DNA of 64,000 bases from IMG/VR virus record IMGVR_UViG_2806310815_000005, one strand, 5' to 3'. How positions within the stretch are numbered: position 1 is the first letter of the stretch; every line of letters starts with the position of its first letter. Shown here piece after piece: positions 41,020 to 61,149 of the stretch. The stretch is from an uncultured virus (IMG/VR IMGVR_UViG_2806310815_000005). Lineage: Duplodnaviria; Heunggongvirae; Uroviricota; Caudoviricetes. A program made the position numbers and the translations under genes. Below the pieces are notes generated by a model. That model was not told the DNA's origin. It made no database searches and saw only the letters and a program-made list of their open reading frames with translations.

Positions 41020-42283
41020 AAGTTTTGTCAAAGAATATCAATTATCATTAAGAAATATTTAACGAATTTGTACAATAAATTTGTTTATTTTACATTTACA
41101 GAAAATTACTAATTTGTTTAAAAGCTTTAAATATAGAATTTACCCCACCGACTCTCAAAAGGAGCTGATACACAAGCATTGTGGTAGTGCTAGGTTCATA
41201 TACAACTTAGCTTTGGAGACAAAACAAATGGCTTATGCAGGAAACAAGGTAAACTTAACTTGTTTTGAACTTATCAAACAACTACCTGAACTTAAAAAAG
41301 AGCTTCCTTGGCTTAAAGATTGTAACAGTCAATCTTTACAAGCACCAATAAGGAATTTAGACAACGCTTTTACAAAATTCTTTAAAGGTCAGGCGGATTT
41401 TCCTGTATTCAAGAAAAAATCAAATAAAGGTAGTTTTAACATACCTCAAAATGTAATATTATCCGATGAAGTATTGGTGATACCTAAATTTAGAGAAGGT
41501 ATTAAGATTAAAATACATAGGGACTATTATGGTAAAATTAAAAGCGCTACAATATCTTATACTTCTACTGGAAAATACTTTGTTTCAATACTATGTGATA
41601 CGGAAGAAGAAAAACCTAGTAAACCAAAAATAACAGAAGAAAGCTCTGTAGGTATCGACCTAGGAATTAAAGACTTTATCGTTTCATCAGAAGCGCAAGT
41701 ATTTGATAATCCAAAATATTTAAGAAAGTCAGAAAAAAGATTAAAATTTTTACAAAGAAAGTATTCAAAACATAAAGGAAAAAGAACAAAACTAAAATTA
41801 GCAAAGTTACACGAAAAAGTAGCAAACCAACGAAAAGATTTTTTACATAAAGTTTCTAAAGAGCTTATCAAGAACCACGATACAATTTGTACAGAAACTC
41901 TACAGGTAAGAAATATGTTGAAAAACCACAATCTAGCAAAATCAATAAGTGATGCAGGTTGGGGTATGTTTATGACAATGTTAGAGTACAAATCTGAATG
42001 GTACGGTAAGAACCTGATTAAAATAGGCACTTTTGAACCATCCTCTAAGACTTGCGGTAATTGTGGGTTAATAAACAAAGATTTGCAATTAAAAGACCGA
42101 GAATGGACTTGTAAAAGCTGTTCTACTATACTTGACCGTGATTTGAACGCTGCTTGTAACATTAAAAACTTTGCTTTAAGAAACTATGTGTCTGGGACGG
42201 ACACTGAAAATCAGAACGAACTGCCTACATTGGTAGGAGTGTTGACTTCTGAAACTAATACACTTTAGTGCTTAGTAGTTCAC
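41020..42283 (+). mobile_element. IS200/IS605-family (IS1341-like, tnpB-only) insertion sequence
   Basis: Right end GAA-ACTAATACAC-TTTA-GTGCTTAGT-AGTTCAC (subterminal hairpin plus TTCAC); left junction inferred after TTAT; no target duplication; no tnpA. Confidence 0.75.
41114..42268 (+). CDS. tnpB: RNA-guided endonuclease TnpB
   Basis: N-terminal FKYRIYPT; RuvC-I GIDLG; RuvC-II TETL; zinc finger CGNC...CKSC; RuvC-III DRDLNAACNI. Start probably TTG 41114 (track gives 41081). Confidence 0.95.
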   Translation: MFKSFKYRIYPTDSQKELIHKHCGSARFIYNLALETKQMAYAGNKVNLTCFELIKQLPELKKELPWLKDCNSQSLQAPIRNLDNAFTKFFKGQADFPVFKKKSNKGSFNIPQNVILSDEVLVIPKFREGIKIKIHRDYYGKIKSATISYTSTGKYFVSILCDTEEEKPSKPKITEESSVGIDLGIKDFIVSSEAQVFDNPKYLRKSEKRLKFLQRKYSKHKGKRTKLKLAKLHEKVANQRKDFLHKVSKELIKNHDTICTETLQVRNMLKNHNLAKSISDAGWGMFMTMLEYKSEWYGKNLIKIGTFEPSSKTCGNCGLINKDLQLKDREWTCKSCSTILDRDLNAACNIKNFALRNYVSGTDTENQNELPTLVGVLTSETNTL

Positions 42284-42300
42284 TTAGTAATCGCGGCAGC
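42150..42300 (+). ncRNA. predicted TnpB omega/reRNA (3' tnpB plus right end) with flanking guide; boundaries approximate
   Basis: Inferred from established TnpB biology: the scaffold overlaps the tnpB 3' end and right end, and the guide starts after TTCAC (42284, TTAGTAATCGCGGCAG). Confidence 0.55.
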
Positions 42301-42606
42301 ATCAGGGATTATCTCTGTCTATGTTTACCGTAATAACGAAAAAACATTAGATAAATACTTTGATTTAGGTGATAAAGCTTGGGATAAAGCTAATGTAGAT
42401 GAAAAAATCGCCGCACTAAAGAAAAAATTAATTGAATTACAACAAGAGAAAATTTCAAAAAAGTAAAACTATGAAAAAAGGAAGCGACGGACTATTAACA
42501 GATATCATCTTTGAAGATACAATGGGGGGATAATAAAGTAAAAACAAAGATATGAATTAGAAGATAAATGGTTATGATCCCTGCAAGGAAACCAATTTTT
42601 TAATTT

Positions 42607-42637
42607 AAACCCTTAGATTAATTTCTAGGGGTTTTTT
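42607..42637. terminator. bidirectional terminator at the strand convergence
   Basis: AAACCCTTAGA-TTAATT-TCTAGGGGTTT with T-runs; lies where + and - gene blocks converge. Confidence 0.7.
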
Positions 42638-43106
42638 CGTTTGGATACATACTCGCTAAATACAAAAAATACTCCGCCTCAACAACATCCCAATGCTTAA
42701 TTAAATACTCAGGAAAGATAGATCCACCGTCTTGAACCAGATAAGGAAAAGCCACGTGACCATTTTCTAAAGACAATAAGTGATAAAGCTCGTGATACAA
42801 AACAGCTTTCCTAAAAGTAGGAAGATAGTTTGGAATATCAGCATTAACAAGGATTATCTTACGGTCATTCCTAGTCGCTCCGTGACGACCTTCTAAGTTA
42901 CTTGACACATAGATACCTTCAAGTAAAGAAAGCCGCTTAAAATCGATATTATACTTAGCACAAGACTTAATAAAGTCAGTTAGAACAGGTTTATAGAAAT
43001 CATCTACCTTAATAACTTTTCCGTCAGGAAGTACAAAATCAGAAACCTGAGCCTCCAAAGAAAGGAAACCCAGGTTTAAAATTAAAAATATAATTAACTT
43101 TTTCAT
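42618..43106 (-). CDS. exported zincin-like metallopeptidase (162 aa)
   Basis: Signal peptide MKKLIIFLILNLGFLSLEA-Q; HELYH (HExxH) plus a downstream His (ENGH). Confidence 0.65.
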   Translation of the reverse strand: MKKLIIFLILNLGFLSLEAQVSDFVLPDGKVIKVDDFYKPVLTDFIKSCAKYNIDFKRLSLLEGIYVSSNLEGRHGATRNDRKIILVNADIPNYLPTFRKAVLYHELYHLLSLENGHVAFPYLVQDGGSIFPEYLIKHWDVVEAEYFLYLASMYPNEKTPRN

Positions 43107-43109
43107 AAC

Positions 43110-43850
43110 TTAAACGTATCTTAAAGATGTTTTGTGTGGGTTGTGCAATATAGCATTACTCAAGTATTTATAACTTTGTGGTTTTGAATAAGAGGCTTCT
43201 TTTAAAGAATCATAATATATTCCTGTATCAGTGTCTAAGACTATTTTAGCACTTTTTCCTTTTTTACCTTTAGATTTACTATTGAATATTTTTGTACCAC
43301 CATCCTCAATTTTTTCTCCGTCAGGTGTTATTGAAAAATTTTTCCAATTTTCTAAAGCCTTATTATAGCTATCAGAGGCTTCTATTTCAGATTTAAAATA
43401 ACCCAAATAATATTTCCTTTGCATTATTCTTATGCTTGCCGCCCATCCTTCGCACTTACTGTCTTTTGAAACTCCTTTAAACTTAGAAGTGACATTATTT
43501 CTTTTACTGTTGTAACTATTTTCTCTCTGGGAGCACCACCTTAAGTTAGACAGGTTGTTATTACTTCTATCAGAATCTATATGGTCTACAACTAAACCTT
43601 CTTTTAGACCCTCAAAAGTAATTAATATCAATCTATGTACATATATCCTAGAACTTTTCTTATTCTTATAAAGTTGTACAGATTTATACCCTCTACCATT
43701 ATCATACTGTCTTAATACTTTAGGAGGTTTATTTTCAGTAACACCATTAACTTTTAAAACTTGTCTTCCTAAGCTTTTAACTCTCCCTAGATTACTTGCT
43801 TGATAAAGCCCTTCATAGTCAGGCACATCTTTCCAAATTTCTTCTTCCAT
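43110..43850 (-). CDS. NUMOD4-HNH-AP2 homing endonuclease (246 aa)
   Basis: EIWKDVPDYEGLYQASNLGRVKS (NUMOD4); VHRL..VDHIDSDRSNNNLSNL (HNH); SKFKGVS..YLGYF (AP2-like). Confidence 0.9.
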   Translation of the reverse strand: MEEEIWKDVPDYEGLYQASNLGRVKSLGRQVLKVNGVTENKPPKVLRQYDNGRGYKSVQLYKNKKSSRIYVHRLILITFEGLKEGLVVDHIDSDRSNNNLSNLRWCSQRENSYNSKRNNVTSKFKGVSKDSKCEGWAASIRIMQRKYYLGYFKSEIEASDSYNKALENWKNFSITPDGEKIEDGGTKIFNSKSKGKKGKSAKIVLDTDTGIYYDSLKEASYSKPQSYKYLSNAILHNPHKTSLRYV

Positions 43851-43864
43851 TTTTAAATAAAATA

Positions 43865-43936
43865 CCCGCCAAGCAGAGGTTAAGGATCTCTACGAAGCGG
43901 GGTTTATAATGTTTTAGTTTGCAGCCTTAACTCTAC
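43865..43936 (-). ncRNA. putative structured leader RNA (two hairpins with complementary loops)
   Basis: On -: GTAG[AGTTAAGG]CTGC, then CCCGC..GTAGAG[ATCCTTAAC]CTCTGC..GCGGG; loops GTTAAGG and CCTTAAC are complementary. Confidence 0.55.
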
Positions 43937-43939
43937 GAT

Positions 43940-43979
43940 TACAAATATAAAACAAAATATCTATTCTGCCAAATTTATT
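43940..43979 (-). promoter_or_regulatory. promoter AATAAATTTG-N13-TTTGTTTTATATTTGTA
   Basis: Bacteroidota -33/-7 consensus; the same arrangement occurs at 53778-53817. Confidence 0.7.
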
Positions 43980-45306
43980 AATTTTTCCATTTAAATTTTT
44001 TATAAGATATATCAATTTCCTCTTCATTTAGATCAAAAACCTCGACAACATACCCACTAACACCTTTTTTAAAGTTGTTTTGCACCCATTGGGATGCAGG
44101 ACTAAACGCAGGGTAGTTAAAATAATCAAAATCTTGGGATGTAGTAAAATCTAATAAAAACTGGTGGGAGTCTCCTTTGCAGAAGTGAAAATATTCGTAT
44201 TTATTATATAAATTATTTCCTTTTATGTATTGATCTATTTTTTCTATTGCTTTAGTGTCTAGGACAGGCTTAAATCCGAATTTGAGGGTCTTGTCATCTT
44301 TCCCGTGGCTGATTATAAAACAGTGTTTTCCTACACCATAATGAGAGATAAATTTTCTATGATTATTTACACTAACATTTTCATATTTGGTTTCTAAAAT
44401 ATATTTAGCAGCAGAGTTTATAAAATAGTCAAAATCCCCTCCGTGATTAGAGTTACACACATTTTCACAAATAATTTGAGAATACTGACCAGTAGCTATT
44501 AGTAAGTCTACCATAACAACCTTAAATTCCACAGCAGTGTCAAACACCTCTGTATTAGTCATATTTTGAGGGAGATCATGACCCCCCCTTGTGGTATAAC
44601 CATTATATCCGTCAGCGGTATCACCGAAATCTCGGATGTATAAAATTTCAGAGTTGTTTTGTATACTTTTGTTTACTGTCTGAACAACCATTTCTTTCAT
44701 CCTAGTCATCAACTCTTTTCTATTCCAAACACCTCCGTACAAGCTATTATTGTATTTATCAGGTTCGAGCCCTATGTGTGAATCAGTGTAAGTCATATTA
44801 GTGATGATAGATGTAGAAGCATCTTTTTTGTATGGAATATTATCCGCAGGCTTAATATGCTTTTTAACAACACTTTCAATAAATTCTTCATCGATACCTG
44901 AGACTTCTTTTAAAGTAGGTTTAAATCTAACATTATAAACCATATGTCCTGCATTGTGAGCCACAAGGTTGTACTTTTCCAAGTTGTCAAAAGACAGATT
45001 AAATTTATTACAGTACTCCTCGATACTATAAAATCTATTTAACTCACTGCTCCAAGCAGATGGCATAGAAAATACTTCTTCCTCATCTTCTATATTAACT
45101 GTTTTTTCTTTTTTAGTGGCTTTTTCATTCTCAAAATTAGCATCTGATTTACCACCACCATCTAGATTATTTATAATTCTGCTAAATTTCCGCCTAACAT
45201 TATCTGTATACTCTATACCGTGTTTTTCACAGTATTTTTTAGCTACATCGGTTATTGTGGATTCTTGTTCCCACAAATTTGAAATCTCATTTTCGTTGTA
45301 TTCCAT
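43978..45306 (-). CDS. calcineurin-like metallophosphoesterase with N-terminal extension (442 aa)
   Basis: TDSHIG, DFGD, NSNHG, SHG and GDSH motifs. Confidence 0.7.
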   Translation of the reverse strand: MEYNENEISNLWEQESTITDVAKKYCEKHGIEYTDNVRRKFSRIINNLDGGGKSDANFENEKATKKEKTVNIEDEEEVFSMPSAWSSELNRFYSIEEYCNKFNLSFDNLEKYNLVAHNAGHMVYNVRFKPTLKEVSGIDEEFIESVVKKHIKPADNIPYKKDASTSIITNMTYTDSHIGLEPDKYNNSLYGGVWNRKELMTRMKEMVVQTVNKSIQNNSEILYIRDFGDTADGYNGYTTRGGHDLPQNMTNTEVFDTAVEFKVVMVDLLIATGQYSQIICENVCNSNHGGDFDYFINSAAKYILETKYENVSVNNHRKFISHYGVGKHCFIISHGKDDKTLKFGFKPVLDTKAIEKIDQYIKGNNLYNKYEYFHFCKGDSHQFLLDFTTSQDFDYFNYPAFSPASQWVQNNFKKGVSGYVVEVFDLNEEEIDISYKKFKWKN

Positions 45307-45370
45307 TTATTTAATTTTAGTTACGCAATATAAACTATTTAAGTAATATATGCAAGTTTATTAATTGTTT

Positions 45371-45796
45371 TTACAGTTTATCTTTGAACTTCAAAAAGTT
45401 ATTCCACAAATTCTCCATATTGTCTTTCCCCACAGGATTCGCAGAATGAAAGTACATAACAGGGAAGACATCCACATCTTCATCAAGAAAATAGTTTATA
45501 ATAAACTTAACACAATCTAAACCTGTTTTTTCAGAGTGAGTTTGTAAGTCTTGATATAGTTTAGATACATTATAATCTGACCAGTACTTTTCAGGAGTAT
45601 AGTGTGAATCTCCTAAATCGTGATCAAATGAAATAGCTTGAGGAATACCATACCTTTCAATAAAAAGCACAAACTCTTCGTAATTTCTAACCCAAACCAA
45701 ATCTTCTTGTAAGAATTTTTCGGGAACGCGTTCTTCTAAGTTTAAATAGGGGTTTCTTAAATCGTCTAACCAAAGACATACATTATTTGTTTTCAT
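45371..45796 (-). CDS. cyclic-phosphate-processing receiver-like domain protein
   Basis: LWLDDLR, ISFDHDLG, KTGLDC, HSANPVG pattern; start probably ATG 45796. Confidence 0.75.
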   Translation of the reverse strand: MKTNNVCLWLDDLRNPYLNLEERVPEKFLQEDLVWVRNYEEFVLFIERYGIPQAISFDHDLGDSHYTPEKYWSDYNVSKLYQDLQTHSEKTGLDCVKFIINYFLDEDVDVFPVMYFHSANPVGKDNMENLWNNFLKFKDKL

Positions 45797-45843
45797 ATTC
45801 CAAATTTTTACCACTATTTTAATTTAGTGGTGATTATTAGTTT

Positions 45844-46170
45844 TTATATATCTGTTATTTCTATACCTAATAAAGACACAAGACACTTCATTTCATTATA
45901 ATCCCATTCATTTTCAATATTAAAATTCTCTTCTAAATCTTCAAGCTGTTCTTGTATTTCTTTATTTTTTACTTTCACTCCCCACCAATTATAATCAGAA
46001 GCTAGTGTTAAAATATGAGTATTCTTTTTTATAGTTCTTATCTTATCTATAAAACTCATCTTATTAAAACGAGCAGACATTATTCTATAATCCTCTAAAG
46101 CATACTCTCTAAATTGCTTTTTCATAGTTTGCCACTCTTCGTCTGTATATTTTTGTCTTAAATTTCCCAT
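45844..46170 (-). CDS. hypothetical protein (108 aa)
   Basis: ORF track; TAATG coupling. Confidence 0.6.
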   Translation of the reverse strand: MGNLRQKYTDEEWQTMKKQFREYALEDYRIMSARFNKMSFIDKIRTIKKNTHILTLASDYNWWGVKVKNKEIQEQLEDLEENFNIENEWDYNEMKCLVSLLGIEITDI

Positions 46171-46967
46171 TATTTTCCTGCTATTAGTTCATAAATATCT
46201 TGCTTATGTTTTTGACCGTTCTTTTGACGCGCATATTGACACTTAAACTCTAAGATACGTTCAACAGGATTTACTTTATAAGTATTTCCTTTAAATTCAA
46301 CGATTTTGTACTTTTCATTTGGCTCTATACTTAAATCTAACTTAACTCCTTTTAAAGTGAAAGTTTCATCAAAAGTATTACCGCTGTTTTTAGCGTCAAT
46401 ATGAGCTACACCGTCAAGCTCTTTTAAATCAACCCAAAAAGGGTGTATTAAATCTAAGTCACCACAGCCTTCTACTTCTAATCTCCTTAATCTTGCACCT
46501 TGTAAATATAGAGCAAGACTTCCACCAACAATTAGGTTTGGGAATTTATTTTGTAAATCTCTTACTAAGTTAAGTTTAAGTCTGTCGTCTTCTTCTCTAT
46601 CTTCTTTTTCCTGAACTATTTTATCTAATTCCTCTTTAGACACTTCTTCCAAAAATTCTATATGATCGGTACAAGATTTATTGGACTCATACCCTGTACC
46701 ATCTTTCCAACGACCTTTAATCCTAACTTTAAAGTAACGATTTTCGCCGCCAAGAGAGTACCATTTAAAACAATCTTCCAAAGTATTACAGTAATGAATA
46801 ACTGAACTAGAGCAAATCCTTAAAGATTTGTCCTCAACAGCACCCTCTCCTATACTAGTTACAGATACAACTTTCCTATCAGAAGTTACCATATATTCTT
46901 TACCTAGTTCATACTGCTGTTGTTTACAGTACATATTTTCATCTGTTGCTTTATATCCTATCTTCAT
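46170..46967 (-). CDS. two-domain protein with C-terminal Pol-beta-like nucleotidyltransferase (265 aa)
   Basis: VGGSLAL...GDLDL (GS plus DxD) and a later KLD; N-terminal YKATD..C..QQYELG..IHYC phage domain. Confidence 0.6.
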   Translation of the reverse strand: MKIGYKATDENMYCKQQQYELGKEYMVTSDRKVVSVTSIGEGAVEDKSLRICSSSVIHYCNTLEDCFKWYSLGGENRYFKVRIKGRWKDGTGYESNKSCTDHIEFLEEVSKEELDKIVQEKEDREEDDRLKLNLVRDLQNKFPNLIVGGSLALYLQGARLRRLEVEGCGDLDLIHPFWVDLKELDGVAHIDAKNSGNTFDETFTLKGVKLDLSIEPNEKYKIVEFKGNTYKVNPVERILEFKCQYARQKNGQKHKQDIYELIAGK

Positions 46968-46969
46968 AG

Positions 46970-47116
46970 TTAGTAAGTTTTATTATCAAAATTTGTATTT
47001 TTTAATTCTTCAAACATATGTTTTAATTCTCCCAATGTTTTGTTTTCTATATTTGGTATAATAGCACTAGCTGTATTTAACCACCGTATAAATTCTAGTC
47101 CGTCTTGTTTTTCCAT
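46970..47116 (-). CDS. small hypothetical protein (48 aa)
   Basis: MEKQDGLEFIRWLN...KTY* read directly; fills the gap in the operon. Confidence 0.45.
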   Translation of the reverse strand: MEKQDGLEFIRWLNTASAIIPNIENKTLGELKHMFEELKNTNFDNKTY

Positions 47117-47119
47117 AAT

Positions 47120-47797
47120 TTAAATAAATTTTGGTGTAAAATCTCCTTGACAACATCCAGGAACAGGTAAAAGTAAGTCTCCCGCTTGGTCAACATTTTT
47201 ATTTGACATCATATTTTGATACCATCTTTTTTCAGTTGTTTTTGAAGGATCTACTAATACGTGATACCCACCTTTTGTCTGAACAATGTCAAAACAATCT
47301 ATGTTTCCTGTGGCTTCGTAAACTATATCCTTAATATGCTTATCGTAGTTTTTATTTGAAATATCAAAATCAAAATCGACTCTAAAAGAACCTGACTTAC
47401 TTACCTGTATTGCATTTAAAGCGATTGACTTCGGATTCTGATACCTATCTTTACCTATGTTGTCAAGTATCATTTTAGCCGTTTTAATAGATGCATTTTT
47501 CATACTTCTAGGTGTCGGATGGATATACAAAGCCAATGTATCTAAAGGAATATCTTCAACCCCATTTATCTTATAACTACCAACAGGACATTCCATCTTT
47601 CTAATTTTATCAAACAGCCTATCTTTAGTAGAGGTAGTTCTTGCTAGTTGAGATTTATCTGATTTCAGTATGTTTGTTTTATCATACTTACTTCTTGCAA
47701 ACAAAGCTAAATAAAATTGTTCTCCGTCTTTTAAATTGGGAAGCCATTCAATAAATTTTTTTAATTTATCTTCGTCTTTAATAATTTTGTAATTCAT
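47120..47797 (-). CDS. AEP (primase/PrimPol) superfamily-like protein (225 aa)
   Basis: RVDFDFD (motif I, DxD), TKGGYHVL (motif II) and a downstream D (NVD). Confidence 0.55.
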   Translation of the reverse strand: MNYKIIKDEDKLKKFIEWLPNLKDGEQFYLALFARSKYDKTNILKSDKSQLARTTSTKDRLFDKIRKMECPVGSYKINGVEDIPLDTLALYIHPTPRSMKNASIKTAKMILDNIGKDRYQNPKSIALNAIQVSKSGSFRVDFDFDISNKNYDKHIKDIVYEATGNIDCFDIVQTKGGYHVLVDPSKTTEKRWYQNMMSNKNVDQAGDLLLPVPGCCQGDFTPKFI

Positions 47798-48896
47798 TAT
47801 TTCTTATTTTAAGTTCAATATTACAAATAAATTCTAAATCCACTTCATCTTTTAACGAAGAGTTAACATATAATTCTTTTAGTTCTTCTGCTTTAATAGA
47901 CCATTCATCCATAATTTTCTTTAAATCAACATCCCCTTTTTTGATGTCTAACAGAAAATTTCTGTCTTTTGTTCTATCCACATTTATAGAGTTTTGAAGG
48001 GGTATTTCTTGGGCAGTCATAATAAGCCTCACAGTATGCATTATATTTTTACCGTCATAGTCTTGACCGTGTTTTTTATTAGTAGCTACCCTAGTCTCGT
48101 TTCTAGCTTTTAACCACTTTTGATATTCTCTATACTCCTTACAGTGAGTGGAATAAGCCTCTCGATTAAAATACATAATACCCTTCCAATCGTTTATCCT
48201 ATATTTTTCTATCACAGATTTTCTAGGTTCATTTGTGCTTTCCTCTCCGATACCTTTATAACCCCTTTCTGAGAAACTTATATCATCAAACCTATGATTA
48301 TCATTTACCCATTTTATATCGTCCAAATAAAACCTATAACAATCTCTAAAACCATCTATTGATGCAAGACCTACTTGTTGTTGTGTATAGTCATTATCTT
48401 TTAACCAATCTTTAACTAAAAAAGTCTTACCTGACTCTCTATCAACAATTTTAGAAAAATCGATTATATCTTTTCTTTCAGTTCTTTTTTTCTCCCAATT
48501 AAATTTTTTATTTAAACCTTGCGCTTTTGAAAGCTGGGTCTTAGCATAACCTGAGAAAGTATTATAACATTTCTTAGATAAGAACTCCTCTTTAATTGAC
48601 AGTAAATACTTCCATTCATCAGTCCAATATAGCATACATCTATCAGGTAAAAATAAGAGCTCTAGTACGTTTGGATTTCCAACAGAGACAAGTTCTAAAA
48701 AACGCCTTAGTTCGTAATAAACTGTATCTGCATCCACATCTATTTGAGCAATATAATTGTTAGATAAAATATCTTCATTAGGTTGCAGAAATACGCCTTT
48801 AATATCTTGATCAGACTCAGGGGTATCTAATCCGTATGCTTGACTACCGACTATACCTTCAAAAATTATTTTATATTTATTTTGTAGTAATTTCAT
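47778..48896 (-). CDS. Pol-beta superfamily nucleotidyltransferase, RlaP-like (372 aa)
   Basis: GSQAYGLDTPESDQDIKGVF, GNPNVLELL, FSGYAKTQ, YDGKNIMHTVRL, LLDIKKG. Confidence 0.85.
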   Translation of the reverse strand: MKLLQNKYKIIFEGIVGSQAYGLDTPESDQDIKGVFLQPNEDILSNNYIAQIDVDADTVYYELRRFLELVSVGNPNVLELLFLPDRCMLYWTDEWKYLLSIKEEFLSKKCYNTFSGYAKTQLSKAQGLNKKFNWEKKRTERKDIIDFSKIVDRESGKTFLVKDWLKDNDYTQQQVGLASIDGFRDCYRFYLDDIKWVNDNHRFDDISFSERGYKGIGEESTNEPRKSVIEKYRINDWKGIMYFNREAYSTHCKEYREYQKWLKARNETRVATNKKHGQDYDGKNIMHTVRLIMTAQEIPLQNSINVDRTKDRNFLLDIKKGDVDLKKIMDEWSIKAEELKELYVNSSLKDEVDLEFICNIELKIRNNELQNY

Positions 48897-49314
48897 TTCT
48901 TCTAATTAAACTTAATAGTAATGTTCTCTCACAATTTAAATTTGCCGTTTGTTTTACAGCTTTCTGTATAATCTCTATTTTATCGTCAATCAAATACAAT
49001 AAACCCCAATTACTAGGCAACTCTCTAACTGAAATTAAATTTTCTGTACAGCAAAAATAACGAAATTCTCCAACACCTAATTCACAATTTTTCCTAAATT
49101 TTTTCTTTTTATCCGCTAAAAAATCGCTACGAGAAGTCTTAACCTCAATTAAAACAGAAGCCCAACTACAAAAACCAATTATATCAGGTATTTCTCCTGT
49201 AACAGTAGCTGAAGAAAATTCAGATAAAACAGTAGGACAATTTGGAACTAGAATATTCTTATTATGTTTCTTTAGCCACTTAGCTGATATTTTAACAATT
49301 TCTGAGTGTGTCAT
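48877..49314 (-). CDS. PD-(D/E)XK nuclease-fold protein, MmcB-like (145 aa)
   Basis: EIPDIIG...LIEVKTSRSDFLADKKK...WGLL. Confidence 0.7.
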   Translation of the reverse strand: MTHSEIVKISAKWLKKHNKNILVPNCPTVLSEFSSATVTGEIPDIIGFCSWASVLIEVKTSRSDFLADKKKKFRKNCELGVGEFRYFCCTENLISVRELPSNWGLLYLIDDKIEIIQKAVKQTANLNCERTLLLSLIRRNEITTK

Positions 49315-49317
49315 AAT

Positions 49318-49641
49318 CTACACTTTTATAATTTTCCAATGTTTAAAATCTTTGTCCCAACTCCTTTTTAAATCTAAGTAGTAATGACCACCACCACGTT
49401 CAATAACATTTACCTTATACCACCAAGCAGTCTTTTTTAATAAATATACTAATTCTTCATTTTCAGACCAACCACCTGTATGGATCTCAATTAAGTTGTT
49501 ATCTATTTCTATGTTACCATATCCAGTCTGATACAAACTGCAAAACACTTCAAAAGCTTCTTCCCATAAGTCAATCTTTCGTTGACCATCTTCTTTAGAG
49601 TCGTTTTCAAAATCTAAAACGTATTTTTCTAATTCTTTCAT
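49318..49641 (-). CDS. hypothetical protein
   Basis: ORF track; probable start MKELEKY at 49641; contains HTGGWSENE. Confidence 0.6.
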   Translation of the reverse strand: MKELEKYVLDFENDSKEDGQRKIDLWEEAFEVFCSLYQTGYGNIEIDNNLIEIHTGGWSENEELVYLLKKTAWWYKVNVIERGGGHYYLDLKRSWDKDFKHWKIIKV

Positions 49642-49646
49642 ATTAT

Positions 49647-50303
49647 CTATTTTGAGTGGTGATCCAAACACACCATTTCCTTTTTACTTAATAAATACTT
49701 TATTTCTTGATAAGAATAAGGTTTAAATTTTGGATGTGTATCAAAGCCTACGTCCATACTTTTACCAAAAACTTCTGTAAGGCTACCGTGACTATGACCA
49801 AAAAGCATCCAACTCCCCTCATTCTTGTGCATATAATTCCATACTCTAAAAGAGTAGTGAGACATTATTATTCTTTGCTTAAAAGCTTTTACACCTTGTT
49901 TTTTAGAAAACTCTGAAACCTGTAACTCTAGATAATCCTGTACAGAAGAAAAAACATATTTTAACTCATCGCTCTTACGTATCTCACTATCGTGATTTCC
50001 TAATATAAGGTGTATATTTTTACAATTGATTTTTTCTCTAAATTCAATAGTTCCGCTTTTATTTTCACCACTTTTATAATCGCCAAAATTCCAATCACCT
50101 AAACAGAATAAAATGTCATCAACACCAACAGTGTTATTTATGTTATTGACTAGTGTATTGTTATGTTCTTCTAGTGTATCAAAATCTCGACAACCTCGTT
50201 TACCATCCCAAGAAGAAGTGCCTCTGACAATTCCCGCGTGGTTATAGTGAGGGTCTGAACAGAAAAATATATTCTGTTTCGGTGTCAATTGTAATTTAAT
50301 CAT
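49647..50303 (-). CDS. calcineurin-like phosphoesterase
   Basis: SDPHYNH, LGD, GNHD, SHY, GHSHG, DVG; probable start MIKLQL at 50303. Confidence 0.85.
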   Translation of the reverse strand: MIKLQLTPKQNIFFCSDPHYNHAGIVRGTSSWDGKRGCRDFDTLEEHNNTLVNNINNTVGVDDILFCLGDWNFGDYKSGENKSGTIEFREKINCKNIHLILGNHDSEIRKSDELKYVFSSVQDYLELQVSEFSKKQGVKAFKQRIIMSHYSFRVWNYMHKNEGSWMLFGHSHGSLTEVFGKSMDVGFDTHPKFKPYSYQEIKYLLSKKEMVCLDHHSK

Positions 50304-50341
50304 ATCTCTAAAATAATTTCTACAAATATATACCAAATAAA

Positions 50342-50369
50342 AAACCCCTACAACTAAATGTAAGGGTTT
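50342..50369 (-). terminator. terminator overlapping the promoter of the next unit
   Basis: On -: ACCCTTACA-loop-TGTAGGGGT then TTTTT, with TATATTTG at 50324-50331. Confidence 0.7.
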
Positions 50370-50393
50370 AACAGGTTTTTAACTTTTTGGTTT

Positions 50394-50696
50394 TTATTTA
50401 ATCTTAATTTCTGTTGGCGGAGATTTGTCTTTTGTAAATTTAATTTTTAGTAAGCCGTTTTTATATTCGGCTTCTACATCGTCAAAAACAAACTGACAAG
50501 CAACAACATACTTAACCTCACCTTTAACAGAAACAATTAGCTTCTTACCTTCTCTATTAAGAGAGATATCTTCTTTCTCTGTTCCCGCTAAGTTAATATC
50601 AAAAGCCTTCCGTTCCTCATCACTTAAAACGTATTTAAACGGAAATTTTGGATTGAAGAAACTTGAAAGCCAATGTTCATCTTCTGTATAAAACAT
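50394..50696 (-). CDS. small heat-shock (Hsp20/alpha-crystallin-like) protein (100 aa)
   Basis: INLAGTEKEDISL...LIVS...VEAEYKNGLLKIKF...IKIK matches the Hsp20 pattern. Confidence 0.7.
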   Translation of the reverse strand: MFYTEDEHWLSSFFNPKFPFKYVLSDEERKAFDINLAGTEKEDISLNREGKKLIVSVKGEVKYVVACQFVFDDVEAEYKNGLLKIKFTKDKSPPTEIKIK

Positions 50697-50766
50697 ATCT
50701 ATAATAATTTTTAAATTTGTCTAGTATATTTCAATTAATATACCAATTAAATACACTGACTTTATG

Positions 50767-51147
50767 TCAAACCTTTTTAATTTTAGTTATGTACTCTTCC
50801 GATATCCATTTATTAATCTCCGTATAGTATTTTCCGTCCAAAAGAAAAGCTTCTTTAGTAGATATTTCTTCATTGTAATCAACGGTAACTAAGTACTGAT
50901 TGTCTGGATTAAACCTATTTTCAAACCAAATACAGTCTTCTTCTCCACTTTCAATACCTCGCTTAAAATCATCTTCCCTAATAACCCACTCATATAACCT
51001 ATCTCTTTCATCTTTAGAAAGCACATAGAAATATTTGTTAATTACTCTTTGAAAAAACATTGCTCTTGCGATAGGGCGTGGTGGCAAACAGGCGGTGACT
51101 AAGAAACTAAACTCAAAGAAGTCTATATCAAATCTAACATCTCTCAT
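50767..51147 (-). CDS. hypothetical protein (126 aa)
   Basis: ORF track; ATGA overlap. Confidence 0.65.
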   Translation of the reverse strand: MRDVRFDIDFFEFSFLVTACLPPRPIARAMFFQRVINKYFYVLSKDERDRLYEWVIREDDFKRGIESGEEDCIWFENRFNPDNQYLVTVDYNEEISTKEAFLLDGKYYTEINKWISEEYITKIKKV

Positions 51148-51422
51148 AACTCTTCAATTTTATACTCGCTATTTTGTGTCTTAAAATGCTTGTCAGAAAT
51201 AACCTCAACAATAACAGAAGTCATCCACGTATAAAATACAGAAGGATCAACTATACAAGCATACCCAACTTTAGATTGTGAGTGTAGCTTTTTACCTTTT
51301 CCTTCATCATCAAACTCAATAAACTTAATAACACCTGTTTTCTTTAATCCGTCGTTTACTCTAACTAATGTTTGCTTAGTTTGTATATCAATAGGTATCT
51401 TCTTTTGTTCTAATTTACTCAT
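51144..51422 (-). CDS. hypothetical protein (92 aa)
   Basis: ORF track; ATGA overlaps. Confidence 0.65.
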   Translation of the reverse strand: MSKLEQKKIPIDIQTKQTLVRVNDGLKKTGVIKFIEFDDEGKGKKLHSQSKVGYACIVDPSVFYTWMTSVIVEVISDKHFKTQNSEYKIEEL

Positions 51423-51715
51423 AATTGTTCTTTTATACTTTTTAATACATTATCAAATTCTTCTTTTTCAATTATTTCGCCGCGTTTAGAACCATTAAGT
51501 AGAAAATCCGAATAACACTTAGGAATACTACTACTAATCTCAACAACAGACCAAAGAAAAGATTCACACACCTTAATAACCTCTACCTCATCATCAGATA
51601 AAACAGAAATCTTATAATACTCGTCGTCTAACAGATTAAAACATTTAAAATAAACAGTCCCTAACGGAATACCTATTTCTTCTACTACCTGTTTTGAATA
51701 ATTTAGTTTATACAT
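51419..51715 (-). CDS. hypothetical protein (98 aa)
   Basis: ORF track. Confidence 0.6.
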   Translation of the reverse strand: MYKLNYSKQVVEEIGIPLGTVYFKCFNLLDDEYYKISVLSDDEVEVIKVCESFLWSVVEISSSIPKCYSDFLLNGSKRGEIIEKEEFDNVLKSIKEQL

Positions 51716-51718
51716 AGC

Positions 51719-51880
51719 CTAAAACTTTAAAGGAGCGTGAGCCAAATTACTAAAATCTACATCTGAATAAGCAATACTCTCTCCTTTTTGTATTCTATCT
51801 AAATTTTCAGAATACATATCAAATGCTTCTATCATTCTTCTATTCATTTCTGCCTGTAATTCCGCGTGATAATTATCCAT
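51719..51880 (-). CDS. small hypothetical protein (53 aa)
   Basis: MDNYHAELQAEMNRR...PLKF* read directly; fills the gap. Confidence 0.5.
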   Translation of the reverse strand: MDNYHAELQAEMNRRMIEAFDMYSENLDRIQKGESIAYSDVDFSNLAHAPLKF

Positions 51881-51883
51881 AAT

Positions 51884-52072
51884 TTATCTATATTTAAATT
51901 CTACTCTTTCTATATCGTGAATAAACTCTCCTTTATTTAATAAACCCTCAGACCTAAGAATATCTTCTAATTTATAAATAGGTAAAGTATACACTCTATC
52001 TGTTCTCTCATCAAACTCTTCATCTGTCCAATCAGAATTATCTACCTGATATTTAATTTCAATTGTTTTCAT
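51884..52072 (-). CDS. hypothetical protein (62 aa)
   Basis: ORF track. Confidence 0.55.
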   Translation of the reverse strand: MKTIEIKYQVDNSDWTDEEFDERTDRVYTLPIYKLEDILRSEGLLNKGEFIHDIERVEFKYR

Positions 52073-52388
52073 TACTTACATTTAATATAATACGTTCTTT
52101 TCTGCTCTTGCTCCACTCAAATAAACAGGGGATAAAATAAAAACTAAGTTGATCTTTTTCTAAAATACTTGACGGCACATAAACGCCTTTTTCTAACGAG
52201 GGTAAAAAACTTTCTATCTTAACAACACAGTCTTTAGACATATTATCATATTCTTCTTCAGTAGAAGCTATAAGATACCAATTATTAGTGTACATATGAT
52301 AGTAGCAACCCCTTTCTTTTAGATTAAACAGTAAGTGATATACTCCGTTTGGTAATACTTCCACCCAATAATCGTCTACATATTTCAT
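52059..52388 (-). CDS. hypothetical protein (109 aa)
   Basis: ORF track; upstream TATATTTG near 52457-52464. Confidence 0.6.
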   Translation of the reverse strand: MKYVDDYWVEVLPNGVYHLLFNLKERGCYYHMYTNNWYLIASTEEEYDNMSKDCVVKIESFLPSLEKGVYVPSSILEKDQLSFYFIPCLFEWSKSRKERIILNVSNENN

Positions 52389-52491
52389 TTTTATTTAATT
52401 TATTTGTTAGTAAAAATACGCCGCTAAAAACAAACAGCAGAAAAATTCAACAATACAAATATACAGCACTACAAACCAAAATACAAAGTGT

Positions 52492-53679
52492 TTAAGATAA
52501 GTTTAACGTTTCAATTATTTCTTCTACGGGTAAGTCTAAGGTGTAGCATTCTGTGTACCCGTCAAATTGCTCAAATGGAATATATTTATAAGAATAAAAT
52601 TTTCTATGTAATAGTATCTCTGTGTCAAAAGCTGTACCTGCATCAAATGAACAAGTGAATACCTCTTTATATTCAAAATATTTACTATATATGTTAGGTC
52701 TAAATCTTTTCTTCAGCCCTTTGTAAGTTTTACCTATTTTATAAAATTCTTCATTCTTATTCCAACATCTAATTAAATATACTATAGCAGGTCTCCCTTT
52801 TGCGCCGTTCACATAAGATGTTCTAGGGTATCCTCCGTTTTCAATACCGCATTGAGGGCATCCGTACCCAGTTAAGTGATCGTTAGGTGTTATTTTAAAG
52901 TATTCTTTATGAATTTTACAATAAATGTCCCCCTTTGTTTTCGCTGTTTTATACTCAAACTTATCATAAATAGATTCATCTGTACCTAATCTTTTCATAG
53001 CTTTTTTGACGAAATCCTCTTTATTAGAAGTTAAAGCTTCTCCTCTTCTGTCTTCCCAACAGAGTCCACACCCCTGACCATTAAGTAACCAATTAGGTTT
53101 AATTCTAAGTTCTCCGTGCTTTCTACATCTAATATTACAGTATTTTAGTGCACCTTTGTAAGTAAAATCACTAAAATCAATTGAATTTTTCCAACCTTCA
53201 CGTTCTCTGTATTTATTTATAAAATATAGAGAGGGAAAACAAGCCGCTTTTATAGTAAAATCAGATTTAGATAAAAGAGAAGCTCCGTTGATAAGAAGTA
53301 TGCCATATTTATCTTGAATGTATATTTTTTGGTCTTTTAAGGCTTTATCTTTTAACTCTCTAGTTAAGATTTTTATGTCAGGGTGAGTCTCTTTAACTTT
53401 CTCTACTAATTCGACATAACTGATCCTCTTACTTTTGTGTGAATTATCCATACCGCACTGAAAACAACCTTTATTAGAAGATAGATGATTGTAAAAAGTA
53501 GTTTCTAATTTACCGTGTACGGGGCAGATTATAGTTACAGGGGACTTTTTTAAAGGTAATTCTTTTATTAAAGAGTAATCAAAGAAATCACCAAATTTTT
53601 CAATTGACTTATTAACATAATAATCTCTTCGCTCTTTAAAATTAAACCCTATAGTAGGATTGTGTCTACTTTTACTCAT
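52492..53679 (-). CDS. putative homing endonuclease: repeated Zn-ribbon modules plus C-terminal GIY-YIG-like domain
   Basis: Three CxxH...CxxC units (CPVH/CFQC, CRKH/CGLC, CKIH/CPQC), then VYLIRC..YKIGKT...E..LH...GYTECY. Probable start ATG 53679; the track GTG lies inside the leader hairpin. Confidence 0.75.
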   Translation of the reverse strand: MSKSRHNPTIGFNFKERRDYYVNKSIEKFGDFFDYSLIKELPLKKSPVTIICPVHGKLETTFYNHLSSNKGCFQCGMDNSHKSKRISYVELVEKVKETHPDIKILTRELKDKALKDQKIYIQDKYGILLINGASLLSKSDFTIKAACFPSLYFINKYREREGWKNSIDFSDFTYKGALKYCNIRCRKHGELRIKPNWLLNGQGCGLCWEDRRGEALTSNKEDFVKKAMKRLGTDESIYDKFEYKTAKTKGDIYCKIHKEYFKITPNDHLTGYGCPQCGIENGGYPRTSYVNGAKGRPAIVYLIRCWNKNEEFYKIGKTYKGLKKRFRPNIYSKYFEYKEVFTCSFDAGTAFDTEILLHRKFYSYKYIPFEQFDGYTECYTLDLPVEEIIETLNLS

Positions 53680-53689
53680 AAATAAAAAT

Positions 53690-53770
53690 CCCGTCACTTA
53701 TCATCTGCATCTCACCTCAGAATCAAAGCAACGGGTATTTTGTTAGTGCGTATTAAAGTGAGATGACGCA
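53690..53770 (-). ncRNA. putative structured leader RNA (two hairpins with complementary loops)
   Basis: On -: TGCGT[CATCTCACTTTAAT]ACGCA, then CCCGTTGCTT..TCTG[AGGTGAGATG]CAGA..AAGTGACGGG; loops CATCTCAC and GTGAGATG are complementary. Confidence 0.6.
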
Positions 53771-53777
53771 ATTAAAG

Positions 53778-53817
53778 TACAAATATAAAACAAACTTTTG
53801 AATTATGCAAATTTATT
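53778..53817 (-). promoter_or_regulatory. promoter AATAAATTTG-N13-TTTGTTTTATATTTGTA
   Basis: Same arrangement as 43940-43979; Bacteroidota consensus. Confidence 0.7.
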
Positions 53818-53822
53818 TTTAA

Positions 53823-55817
53823 TTAATGTACCTCTGCGTATGAATTACCTATTTTATAATCTATACCTACAGGCACTTTAAGTTTCAACTGTCTGTTCAC
53901 CATATCAATAGCTTTCTTTAACTTTTCAACAATTAAATCACAATCCTCTGGTTTACAGCAAGTTATAATTTCATCGTGGAAACCTCCATATAATGTAACA
54001 CCCAAACCCATAAGATTATGTTGCCAGAGTGTAAATATATAATCTCCTGCACCTTGGTTTACGGTGCTGAAAATATCGCGCTCTGAGCGGAGACTATAAA
54101 AGTAACCATTTAAAGGGTTTTTAACCCACAACTGACCATTCGATTCCTTTGTTTCACAAGACTCAGAAAAAACACGAACACAGTTATTTTTAACCCAATA
54201 TGCATCTATTAGATTAGCTGCTTCTTTTGCAGGTATACCTAAATCCTCCCCTAGTTTAACTTTTCCAATACCGTACATACTGCTGTAGTTAGTCACTTTG
54301 CCTGCCGCCCTCTTTTTATCTAATTTATCGTGAAATTCATTCTTTTCTTCGTCTGTTTTATAGGAATTTAGTATAATTTGAAAATCTTCTGGTATTTCTC
54401 CTATCTCCTTAAAAGTGATGTCAGGATTTTTTCTTTTCTCTTTCCACCACTTATAAAAGAACACCTCTGCCTCTGTCATCATATTTGCAATTTGTGCAAT
54501 CTCTAAATGCGGATCGTAAAAAGGATGAGACTGATCTTCAACAAATTTTCTGTCTATGTCAAATACAAAGTTATTTCTAGTAACACTCTCTAGAGCACTG
54601 AGATCCGACCCCACCATAACATAACCTTCGGGAGGTAGAAGTAAACTACGTACATACTCCCCATAAGGAGCAGAAGGTTTAATAAGATTTACTAAAGTTC
54701 TGTGTTTTATCCTTAAAGTATTTGTAAATCCTCCTATATCAGCCACTATCTTATTGCCTCTAATCTTATCCCTTAGAAATCCTACAAAGTACCCTCTACG
54801 GTGCTGTAATAAGCTTAAATCAGACAGTCCTTTTATCTCTGGAACTTCTTCAACTAATTTTAATATTGATTTACATAAATCTTTGTTTTTATCTTTTAGT
54901 TGAGGCACTTTTCCGTTTGCGCCGTCCTTGTAGATACGAGGCTTCCAATTTAGCGAGAATAACCAAGATTTAACTTGTGAAGTGCTTTGAGGATTAGGCT
55001 CGTCGTACCTTACAACCTCTTCTAATTCTCCCTCGTAGTCTTCATCAACACCATAGTGTTCAGCTATTTTCAACCACCTTTCACCAGCAACAGAGGGAGT
55101 TCCGTCTTTTTTATAAATAGACTTTGGACGCTTTCTTTTGGCTACGACGGGGACTTTAGGCATTACTTTTTTCAACTCTTCTACTATTTCTTCTATAAGC
55201 TTATCAAACAGTTCTAAATTAGCTTGACAAGTTTCAATATCTAAAGTTAAAGGGTTGTCTTGGTGCATTTTATAGACCTTGCCTTTTGTCATAAGAAATC
55301 TTAGCAATGATTCTATGCGATTGTCATCATTGTTGTACAAATCTCTTAATAACTTTAGGTGTTTAAACCAAGTGTTTGTGTTAATCTTACAGTCTTCTGT
55401 AACCCTATTTACATACTCTTCATAAGATAGATTTTCCCAATCATCTATTTTTGGCTTAGGAACATTAAATTCCTCTCCATAATCTGAAAGCCCATATTTT
55501 ATTCTGTTTGGTTCAATGTACCAAGCCACTAACAATGAATCTACTATTGTGGCTTTTATCTGTATACCCTTAAATATTTTCTCAAGACTAGGGATATCAA
55601 ACATATAGAAATTATGACCCACTATTGTGTTATTGGGGTCTTCAAATACCTTTTTTACATCTTCTTTTTTGTTGGTAGTTTTAACAGACCAACCATCTTT
55701 TGTTTTATAAGCAATACCTAGAACGTGAAGATCAGACTCAACCCCTTTAATATCTTCTAAGAACCCTTTTGTCTCAATATCCCCTATTAGAGGTGTATCT
55801 AAGTCTATCTTACTCAT
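53823..55817 (-). CDS. polA: DNA polymerase family A (T7-like) with 3'-5' exonuclease (664 aa)
   Basis: Exo DIET, GHN..FD; motif A GSDLSALE; motif B RAAGKVTNYSSMYG; motif C FHDEI. Confidence 0.93.
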   Translation of the reverse strand: MSKIDLDTPLIGDIETKGFLEDIKGVESDLHVLGIAYKTKDGWSVKTTNKKEDVKKVFEDPNNTIVGHNFYMFDIPSLEKIFKGIQIKATIVDSLLVAWYIEPNRIKYGLSDYGEEFNVPKPKIDDWENLSYEEYVNRVTEDCKINTNTWFKHLKLLRDLYNNDDNRIESLLRFLMTKGKVYKMHQDNPLTLDIETCQANLELFDKLIEEIVEELKKVMPKVPVVAKRKRPKSIYKKDGTPSVAGERWLKIAEHYGVDEDYEGELEEVVRYDEPNPQSTSQVKSWLFSLNWKPRIYKDGANGKVPQLKDKNKDLCKSILKLVEEVPEIKGLSDLSLLQHRRGYFVGFLRDKIRGNKIVADIGGFTNTLRIKHRTLVNLIKPSAPYGEYVRSLLLPPEGYVMVGSDLSALESVTRNNFVFDIDRKFVEDQSHPFYDPHLEIAQIANMMTEAEVFFYKWWKEKRKNPDITFKEIGEIPEDFQIILNSYKTDEEKNEFHDKLDKKRAAGKVTNYSSMYGIGKVKLGEDLGIPAKEAANLIDAYWVKNNCVRVFSESCETKESNGQLWVKNPLNGYFYSLRSERDIFSTVNQGAGDYIFTLWQHNLMGLGVTLYGGFHDEIITCCKPEDCDLIVEKLKKAIDMVNRQLKLKVPVGIDYKIGNSYAEVH

Positions 55818-60227: not shown

Positions 60228-60402
60228 CTTCCAATATTTTTATATAATTACTGTTTAAATTTTTATCTTGCATCACTTTAAGCAAAGATAACAAATCTTC
60301 TTCGTTTCCGAGCCTAAGCCAGTCTAAATATTCGTTAAAATCCATATCTCCAATAATATTTAGTGGATTGGATATTAGCTGTTCGTACTTAGTGTTTATC
60401 AT
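60187..60402 (-). CDS. hypothetical protein (71 aa)
   Basis: ORF track. Confidence 0.5.
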   Translation of the reverse strand: MINTKYEQLISNPLNIIGDMDFNEYLDWLRLGNEEDLLSLLKVMQDKNLNSNYIKILEVEVHSKRTRTARI

Positions 60403-61108: not shown

Positions 61109-61149
61109 ATTTCTTATTTTTAATTACACTACAAATATAAAACAAAAAA

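Follow-up and report, generated by a model that had tools for sequence, protein, structure and literature searches.

In a 64,000-nucleotide (nt) stretch of DNA from an uncultured Caudoviricetes virus (IMG/VR record IMGVR_UViG_2806310815_000005; hereinafter referred to as the window), two mutually unrelated endonuclease genes are each preceded by a leader of ~90 nt, in which the loop of a 5' hairpin is complementary to the apical loop of a long terminator-like hairpin. Covariation among homologous leaders indicates that this loop-loop pairing is under selection. With moderate confidence, we read the leader as a portable, cis-acting, promoter-proximal attenuator, in which the loop-loop contact would set the read-through into the gene. 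Promoter-proximal attenuation of selfish endonuclease genes is known; for the covarying kissing-loop architecture, neither Rfam nor the papers searched gave a description.

Both leaders lie on the minus strand and showed the same order of elements: promoter, 5' hairpin (hairpin 1), A-rich linker, long terminator-like hairpin (hairpin 2), U tract, and ATG. Leader 1 precedes a NUMOD4-HNH homing endonuclease gene of 246 amino acids (43110..43850, minus strand), which matched Pfam NUMOD4 (1.1e-12) and HNH_3 (2.4e-14) and the HNH endonuclease families of PHROG. Leader 2 precedes a DUF723/T5orf172 (GIY-YIG-like) endonuclease gene, 395 amino acids from its ATG (52492..53679, minus strand; Pfam DUF723 4e-08, T5orf172 5e-05; PHROG 681 endonuclease 2.4e-48). 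By their Pfam families, NUMOD4-HNH and DUF723/T5orf172, the two nucleases are unrelated to each other. The upstream neighbours encode an exonuclease-like protein (phrog_22398) and a family A DNA polymerase (polA), respectively. For the second nuclease gene, the start given by the open reading frame (ORF) caller was a GTG at 53697, which falls within hairpin 2; the ATG at 53679, past the U tract, is the likelier start.

In leader 1, hairpin 1 (43921..43936, minus strand) has a GUAG/CUGC stem and an 8-nt loop (43925-43932) with GUUAAGG; it was found by our motif scanner and in both the minimum free energy and the centroid structures of RNAfold. An A-rich linker of 19 nt (43902..43920, minus strand), identified from the sequence and RNAfold, leads to hairpin 2 (43865..43901, minus strand; RNAfold), which consists of a GC-rich base, a 3x3 internal loop, and a 6-bp apical stem. 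Its apical loop (43879-43887) with CCUUAAC forms seven Watson-Crick pairs to the hairpin 1 loop. A U-rich tract and an A/U-rich stretch (43851..43864, minus strand) then run to the ATG (43848-43850). In leader 2, hairpin 1 (53747..53770, minus strand; RNAfold, scanner) has a UGCGU/ACGCA stem and a 14-nt loop (53752-53765) with CAUCUCAC, and the A-rich linker is 11 nt long. Hairpin 2 (53690..53735, minus strand; RNAfold) is built from a 10-bp base, a UGAU/UGAU internal loop, and a 4-bp apical stem, and its apical loop (53708-53717) with GUGAGAUG forms eight Watson-Crick pairs to the hairpin 1 loop. The U tract AUUUUUAUUU (53680..53689, minus strand) stands directly before the ATG (53677-53679). 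A first-pass annotation, made from the sequence alone, had described the loop complements GTTAAGG (43925-43931)/CCTTAAC (43879-43885) and CATCTCAC (53758-53765)/GTGAGATG (53708-53715), unrelated in sequence between the two leaders, and these were found as described. The hairpin-linker-hairpin architecture that it had drawn for both leaders was also predicted by RNAfold, with free energies of -21.7 kcal/mol for leader 1 (z -2.28; 3 of 200 shuffles as good) and -22.5 kcal/mol for leader 2 (z -1.95; 6 of 200 shuffles as good).

The window contained exactly two copies of the pattern AATAAATTTG-N13-TTTGTTTTATATTTGTA (43940-43979 and 53778-53817), against 0 copies expected from 100 shuffles. The pair of promoters claimed earlier at these positions was thereby recovered exactly, with identity in 10 + 17 bases. 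Promoter 1 (43940..43979, minus strand) was assigned from the exact pattern match and the spacing; it comprises a -33 TTTG (43970-43973) and a -7 TATATTTG (43942-43949), and shares bases with the stop codon (43978-43980) of the gene before it. Promoter 2 (53778..53817, minus strand) has the same 10 + 17 bases and begins 5 nt past the polA stop codon. The Bacteroidota promoter consensus is -33 TTTG and -7 TAnnTTTG, and the spacing of 20 nt in both promoters fits this -33/-7 form. The distance from the -7 box to hairpin 1 is 5 nt in leader 1 and 9 nt in leader 2, and in at least 11 of 16 scored members of the class defined below, hairpin 1 is separated by 2-9 nt from the end of a preceding TAnnTTTG box, so that the transcript would begin at or near hairpin 1. 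One further exact copy of the 17-mer of the -7 box stands at 61130-61146; the ORF behind it (60389-61108) has a short plain leader. Because this copy precedes an ordinary gene, the promoter is not exclusive to endonuclease genes.

To assess the pairing beyond the window, the upstream regions of MEEEIWK-type NUMOD4-HNH homologues were collected from IMG/VR and metagenome contigs; 128 were long enough, of which 87 were distinct. A terminator-like hairpin lay within 45 nt of the ATG in 32 of these 87 regions. Among the 26 loci with loops scorable on both sides, at least six Watson-Crick loop-loop pairs were found in 13 and at least seven in 11. When loops were combined across non-homologous loci as a control, the corresponding counts were 44/710 (6.2%) and 14/710 (2.0%). 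The binomial p-values of 1e-9 and 1e-12 overstate independence, as some of the loci are related. The distribution was bimodal, with zero loci having exactly five loop-loop pairs, and the kissing sequences were of ten different kinds from at least seven lineages. Further, in an alignable subfamily of seven sequences (A3), all seven kissing pairs were kept in every sequence, and four of the seven changed on both sides. The A3 structure was 93.6% paired, compared with 75.2% in shuffles (0/500 reached it) and 33-42% with slid partners. G-U pairs recurred in the A3 stems, fitting an RNA of the sense strand. The first-pass annotation had argued for a selected RNA structure from a conserved architecture with differing loops; the retention of loop-loop pairing with differing sequences in many homologous leaders, together with the compensatory changes in A3, bears this out.

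In a test of plain complementarity, the 75 nt upstream and the interior of hairpin 2 were searched for their best complementary run, which was compared with 200 dinucleotide shuffles; for leader 1, p was 0.19 when scored on run length and 0.01 when scored on duplex energy. Since most loci were not significant (p 0.1-0.35 for most relatives), this test was dropped as support and replaced by the loop-to-loop test; the pairing is significant because both partners sit in hairpin loops, not because of a 7-nt match alone. A single 7-nt complement within ~110 nt indeed arises in 10-35% of shuffles, as would be expected if the match were due to chance, or to DNA-level inverted repeats such as operator half-sites for a protein or recombination scars. 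This explanation is highly improbable, given the strong enrichment of the loop-to-loop placement within loci, the compensatory changes, and the G-U pairs, which would become A-C mismatches on the opposite strand.

For this analysis, we grouped such elements into a class of kissing-loop terminator leaders, which is our own grouping and not a published family. Membership requires that a promoter stands within ~10 nt of hairpin 1, that a terminator-like hairpin 2 is no more than 20 nt away from the ATG, and that the two apical loops can form six or more Watson-Crick pairs. Both window leaders belong to it (seven and eight loop-loop pairs), and across members hairpin 2 lies 9-20 nt before the ATG. 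Ten loci (L010, L083, L096, L074, L129, L041, L126, L055, L075, and L160) share an invariant AGUA that faces GAA(A) across the internal loop of hairpin 2. The AGUA/GAA motif was absent from both window leaders, and leader 2 has the symmetric UGAU/UGAU loop instead. A covariance model of the AGUA/GAA subfamily (R1) recovered the subfamily and L055 (E 1.4e-3), and with filters off it also gave weak matches to L160 (E 0.032) and L075 (E 0.088). The window leaders were not recovered by R1, and no single sequence-aware model spans the class. The earlier proposal that the two genes share one cassette therefore holds in part: promoter and architecture are the same, but the promoter is of the general Bacteroidota type and recurs at 61130 without the leader, and the leaders are alike in architecture and not in sequence, both being missed by the one-subfamily model.

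Hairpin 2 has the form of an intrinsic terminator in both leaders, with the stem bases CCCGC/GCGGG and CCCGU/ACGGG directly before the U tails UAUUUUAUUU and AUUUUUAUUU; a generic terminator scan, which does not allow interrupted stems, flagged only the inner part of leader 1. With an element of this form between promoter and gene, the gene would be expressed by read-through alone. From these features we infer promoter use, termination, and an effect of the kissing contact as follows. The host-type (Bacteroidota sigma-A) promoter and the ~90-nt leader would form a self-contained 5' control module for each endonuclease gene. Most transcripts would stop at the U tract of hairpin 2, and the hairpin 1 loop would kiss the apical loop of the terminator, the contact setting the fraction that reads into the gene. 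The linkers of class members are 8-21 nt long, which is near or below the ~11-18 nt that a fully stacked complex would need according to our own rough geometric estimate. Since linkers of this length would just about suffice for a stacked kissing complex, the most likely effect of the contact is to reduce termination, to a level that would be fixed and ligand-independent, or set by a macromolecular factor. The opposite sign of effect, in which the kissing contact stabilises the terminator, is not the most likely one.

The closest known arrangement is the guanidine-IV riboswitch (mepA motif). According to PMC11611296, a kissing loop between its 5' hairpin and its terminator hairpin is proposed to hinder completion of the terminator stem and so cause read-through, and its short linker creates steric competition. 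The window leaders likewise have a 5' hairpin kissing a terminator-forming hairpin, as judged by sequence and covariation only. The two systems differ in that the guanidine-IV loops are conserved and their contact is ligand-dependent, whereas here 6-8 full Watson-Crick pairs are formed by loops that differ from copy to copy; loop nucleotides were not conserved, with ten kissing sequences among homologous leaders and no Rfam match. The genes downstream encode NUMOD4-HNH and DUF723/T5orf172 endonucleases instead of a guanidine exporter or detoxification protein. Because the loops vary freely, there is no conserved ligand pocket.

A more specific version of the attenuator reading, which we put forward only tentatively, is a ligand-free "dosing terminator" portable between Bacteroidota phages, in which the kissing loop would compete with stem closure and give a fixed read-through. 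As only complementarity would matter, each copy could have a private loop code, so that copies would neither pair nor recombine with one another. The fold would then be a ready-made expression unit carried by mobile endonuclease genes and by some ordinary phage operons. If the attenuator reading is correct, the leaders would represent an undescribed, widespread class of structured phage RNA, with a terminator tuned by a tertiary loop-loop contact without a ligand, and would explain how selfish endonuclease genes import tightly limited expression into new genomes. They would also provide natural orthogonal transcription-control parts for Bacteroidota, where such tools are few, since the loops vary freely.

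The position of the fold relative to the start codon bears on whether it acts on translation. The distance from hairpin 2 to the ATG is 14 nt in leader 1 and 10 nt in leader 2, and the A/U-rich stretch and the ATG are outside the fold. Hairpin 2 thus includes neither the ribosome binding site (RBS) nor the start codon, the 10-15 nt before the ATG lying outside it. A translation or stability element, in which a rigid fold limits ribosome loading, or a 5' hairpin or compact fold protects the mRNA, with termination being incidental, would have precedents. RNA hairpins at the ribosome binding site control T-even endonuclease genes, and for seg43(25) of Aeromonas phage 25, a hairpin of very high stability is predicted shortly before the RBS, which it leaves unsequestered but whose use in translation it may regulate (PMC2988022). 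In addition, a second type of leader described below (class P; L007, L025, L073, and others) pairs an internal element with sequence adjoining the ATG. In the kissing class, however, the ATG and the preceding A/U-rich stretch are outside the structure, and a GC-rich stem stands directly before a U tract in 32 of the 87 regions, which is beyond what a stability hairpin needs. An action on translation or stability is therefore improbable.

Self-limited expression is known for endonuclease genes of T4. According to PMC2988022, T-even endonuclease genes have their own promoters, some have hairpins limiting their translation, and their expression is low; in T4, mobE and segF each carry an intrinsic terminator at the 5' end, and a termination of ~30% was measured for that of mobE. 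The genes treated there (mobE, segF, I-TevI/II/III, segB, and seg43(25)) resemble those of the window in being selfish endonuclease genes with own promoters and 5' terminators or stable hairpins. In contrast, the T4 terminators are short, simple, and located within coding sequence, and the Shine-Dalgarno sequence is sequestered by the T4 hairpins, whereas the terminator-like hairpin here is upstream of the ATG, long, and interrupted, and a covarying tertiary contact links it to a 5' hairpin. The hosts here, unlike those of T-even phages, are Bacteroidota. Shine-Dalgarno pairing is weak in Bacteroidota.

The occurrence of the fold was surveyed with the scanner, which accepted a terminator-like hairpin bearing an apical hairpin when a second hairpin lay no more than 75 nt upstream and the loops could form six or more pairs. 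On both strands of the window, it returned 12 hit rows, of which only the two endonuclease leaders had an ORF next; the remaining rows were mostly 6-nt runs within coding sequence. On 43 loci (250,525 bases), the strong matches preceding an ORF were at HNH genes, besides one doubtful AT-rich match (L029) and one weak match (L155). The nuclease of L029 is a 28%-identical relative of the second nuclease of the window, and its leader contains GTACGAA/TTCGTAC; RNAfold equally makes an ordinary stem of it, and the locus was not counted as support.

The fold was also found in a cultured phage, Flavobacterium columnare phage FCV-1.01. On this AT-rich genome, a relaxed scanner gave ~130 hit rows, nearly all of them AT-only, and two GC-containing intergenic ones were kept after reading. 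One precedes a NUMOD4-HNH-AP2 gene, with loops GUAGUGC/GCACUAC and the AGUA/GAA internal loop. The other, with loops GUAGAGAG/CUCUCUAC, precedes a 69-amino-acid ORF followed by an HTH_36 protein, that is, a non-nuclease operon. The fold is thus not nuclease-specific. Since cultured F. columnare phages carry it, the attenuator reading is testable now.

The first-pass annotation had also considered that the leader might be a small RNA that partners the nuclease. Its physical linkage to nuclease genes would suit an RNA partner or guide, but the same fold stands before the unrelated NUMOD4-HNH and DUF723/T5orf172 nucleases and before the 69-amino-acid ORF and HTH_36 protein of FCV-1.01, which argues against this proposal. 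Further, the loops differ from copy to copy, and no Rfam match to HEARO or an omega-RNA-like family was found. We regard a role as nuclease partner as very improbable. The non-nuclease copy points instead to general machinery, such as RNA polymerase, ribosomes, or RNases.

The same copy would be compatible with a factor-dependent antitermination switch, in which a phage or host factor opens the terminator at a set time of infection. A promoter, short leader, terminator, and gene are the classic layout of antitermination-controlled operons, and the order of elements in the leaders matches it. In lambda pR'-tR', transcription constitutively yields a short RNA unless RNA polymerase is modified, and read-through depends on Q; HK022 put is a two-hairpin RNA just downstream of a promoter. 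The leaders are similar to these in having a promoter-proximal terminator that would give a short RNA and two hairpins near the promoter. In addition, the invariant AGUA opposite GAA in hairpin 2 of many members looks like a protein-binding motif, presumably of the sarcin-ricin/loop-E type. On the other hand, the window leaders are without this motif, no class-wide sequence conservation was found beyond it, and no candidate antiterminator gene was identified. Unlike in lambda and HK022, no Q-like or put-like sequence or factor was identified, and the second hairpin here is the terminator itself. A switch of this kind is unlikely, if worth keeping in view.

A promoter, a 5' hairpin, and a terminator are also the anatomy of a small-RNA gene, and a compact kissing fold would be stable. 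The terminated RNA of ~85-95 nt could thus itself be the product, a small structured RNA from a strong promoter, with expression of the gene as a by-product of read-through. However, no single-stranded seed or other conserved sequence is common to the class, and the element always stands 7-20 nt before the start codon, which points to cis action; we consider an independent small RNA quite unlikely.

Several points weigh against the attenuator reading itself. The window leaders are not sequence-homologous to the subfamily in which covariation was found and were placed in the class by architecture alone. The z-scores of their predicted folds are only modest (about -2.3 and -2.0). Across members, linker length does not scale with stem length. 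The reading also presumes that Bacteroidota RNA polymerase would terminate at long interrupted hairpins. Finally, metatranscriptome contigs from one sample bridge both leaders (X5 record 1, 42400-45730; records 7 and 15, 53425-53994), which indicates at most that read-through RNA or carried-over DNA exists. Another contig (X6 record 10) has its end at 43848, shortly beyond the leader 1 U tract, although this observation is anecdotal and from one sample. Contig depth dropped over the second nuclease gene relative to the flanking genes, and both genes were partly uncovered; contig depth and holes cannot rank genes, and neither was used.

No counterpart of the leaders was found in Rfam 15, which gave 0 matches in the whole window at gathering score. 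With E-values up to 5 in 42000-54500, only weak and unrelated matches to the greA leader (E 0.22, 50335-50429) and CRISPR-DR45 (E 4.8) were obtained, and eight related loci gave one weak Phe_leader match (E 0.56), elsewhere. This agrees with the first-pass annotation, in which the leader had been assigned to no named family. A description of such a leader was not found in the paper searches; the main text of the paper on 224 motifs (PMC5737381) contained no endonuclease, homing, HNH, or kissing.

The surroundings of polA showed how the second cassette is placed. In relatives with 72-74% amino acid identity in polA (L153, L156, and L157), polA is followed by a plain terminator, a promoter, and a short leader, with no endonuclease gene. 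In the window, the polA stop is followed by the cassette promoter, the two hairpins, and the nuclease gene, only 4 nt after which comes a resident promoter. The latter, which belongs to the next gene and marks the 3' border of cassette 2 (52456..52487, minus strand), has a leader that by eye resembles the one after the polA terminator in the relatives. Cassette 2 thus stands at the place of the polA terminator of the relatives, with hairpin 2 as the only terminator-like element left. Elsewhere in the minus-strand block, a terminator is followed by a promoter, and the cassettes reverse that order. Contigs of a related DNA population (run X8) lose their likeness to the window at 43943 and 53810, inside both promoters (one contig each), which weakly suggests that the 5' cassette borders may lie inside the two promoters. 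For the HNH cassette, relatives of the upstream gene (L146-L152) have unrelated downstream genes and gave no borders.

In the polA relatives, endonuclease genes were also found directly upstream of polA, of the GIY-YIG type in L153/L154 (1738-2490) and of the NUMOD4-HNH type in L156 (1813-2514). No kissing-loop leader was found at these genes. The polymerase gene is evidently a hotspot for insertions of endonuclease genes.

HNH genes of other phages had leaders of further types. Class P leaders, ~110 nt upstream of the HNH start, were found in nine loci (L007, L025, L073, L090, L099, L114, L120, L144, and L145). They are conserved in sequence, with the order promoter, AAGCAGGAUAG, hairpin, GACAAAGGUAA, a 7-nt element x, and GCCCUUCCUGCUU with a U tract. 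Two complements of x follow, one directly after the U tract and one adjoining the ATG, and x and its complements covary between loci. The class P leaders of L007 and L025 had no Rfam match. In the cultured Polaribacter phage P12002L (L158, 13060-13183 of the record), the HNH leader contains UCUAUGUU, complementary to AACAUAGA just before the ATG, and is closer to class P than to the kissing type. In seven other loci (L079, L119, L095, L124, L019, L136, and L125), the HNH leaders have pairings of 11-23 bp, G-U included, from a 5' element to the interior of the terminator hairpin. These phages have sigma-70-type promoters and Shine-Dalgarno sites, and the pairings look like alternative helices, not short kissing loops.

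The window comes from a metagenome contig of 141 kb (L066). Giant virion proteins are encoded on its plus strand, and replication genes form a block on its minus strand. Along the entire length of the 2366-amino-acid virion protein, the identity to Cellulophaga phages phi4:1 and phi17:2 is 51%, and because of this likeness the phage is assigned, from sequence comparison, to the phi4:1/phi17:2 group of large marine Flavobacteriia phages. The same likeness ruled out a crAss-like identity, and a transcription study of phi14:2 was therefore not drawn on. A group I intron was considered for the region of the HNH gene and rejected, as no Rfam intron match was obtained and the next ORF begins 3 nt past the stop codon of the HNH gene, leaving no space for an intron 3' of it.

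At the junction of the two gene blocks, a full-length TnpB-like gene (41081-42268, plus strand) was identified, with HTH_OrfB_IS605, OrfB_IS605, and Cas12f1-like TNB matches and a match to the phrog_506 transposase (6.7e-123); no omega-RNA-like Rfam match was found downstream of it. Between the two cassettes, a run of genes with an RNA-repair flavour (45371-50336, minus strand) encodes a cREC_REC receiver domain, RlaP (RNA repair pathway DNA polymerase beta family), a weak Hjc-like match, and a Metallophos phosphoesterase, and is followed by an HSP20-like protein (50394-50696). In addition, a strong terminator-like hairpin of 14 pairs (43043-43077, minus strand) lies in the 5' coding part of the ORF after the HNH gene, and reads seem to be cut near it, at 43072-43101.

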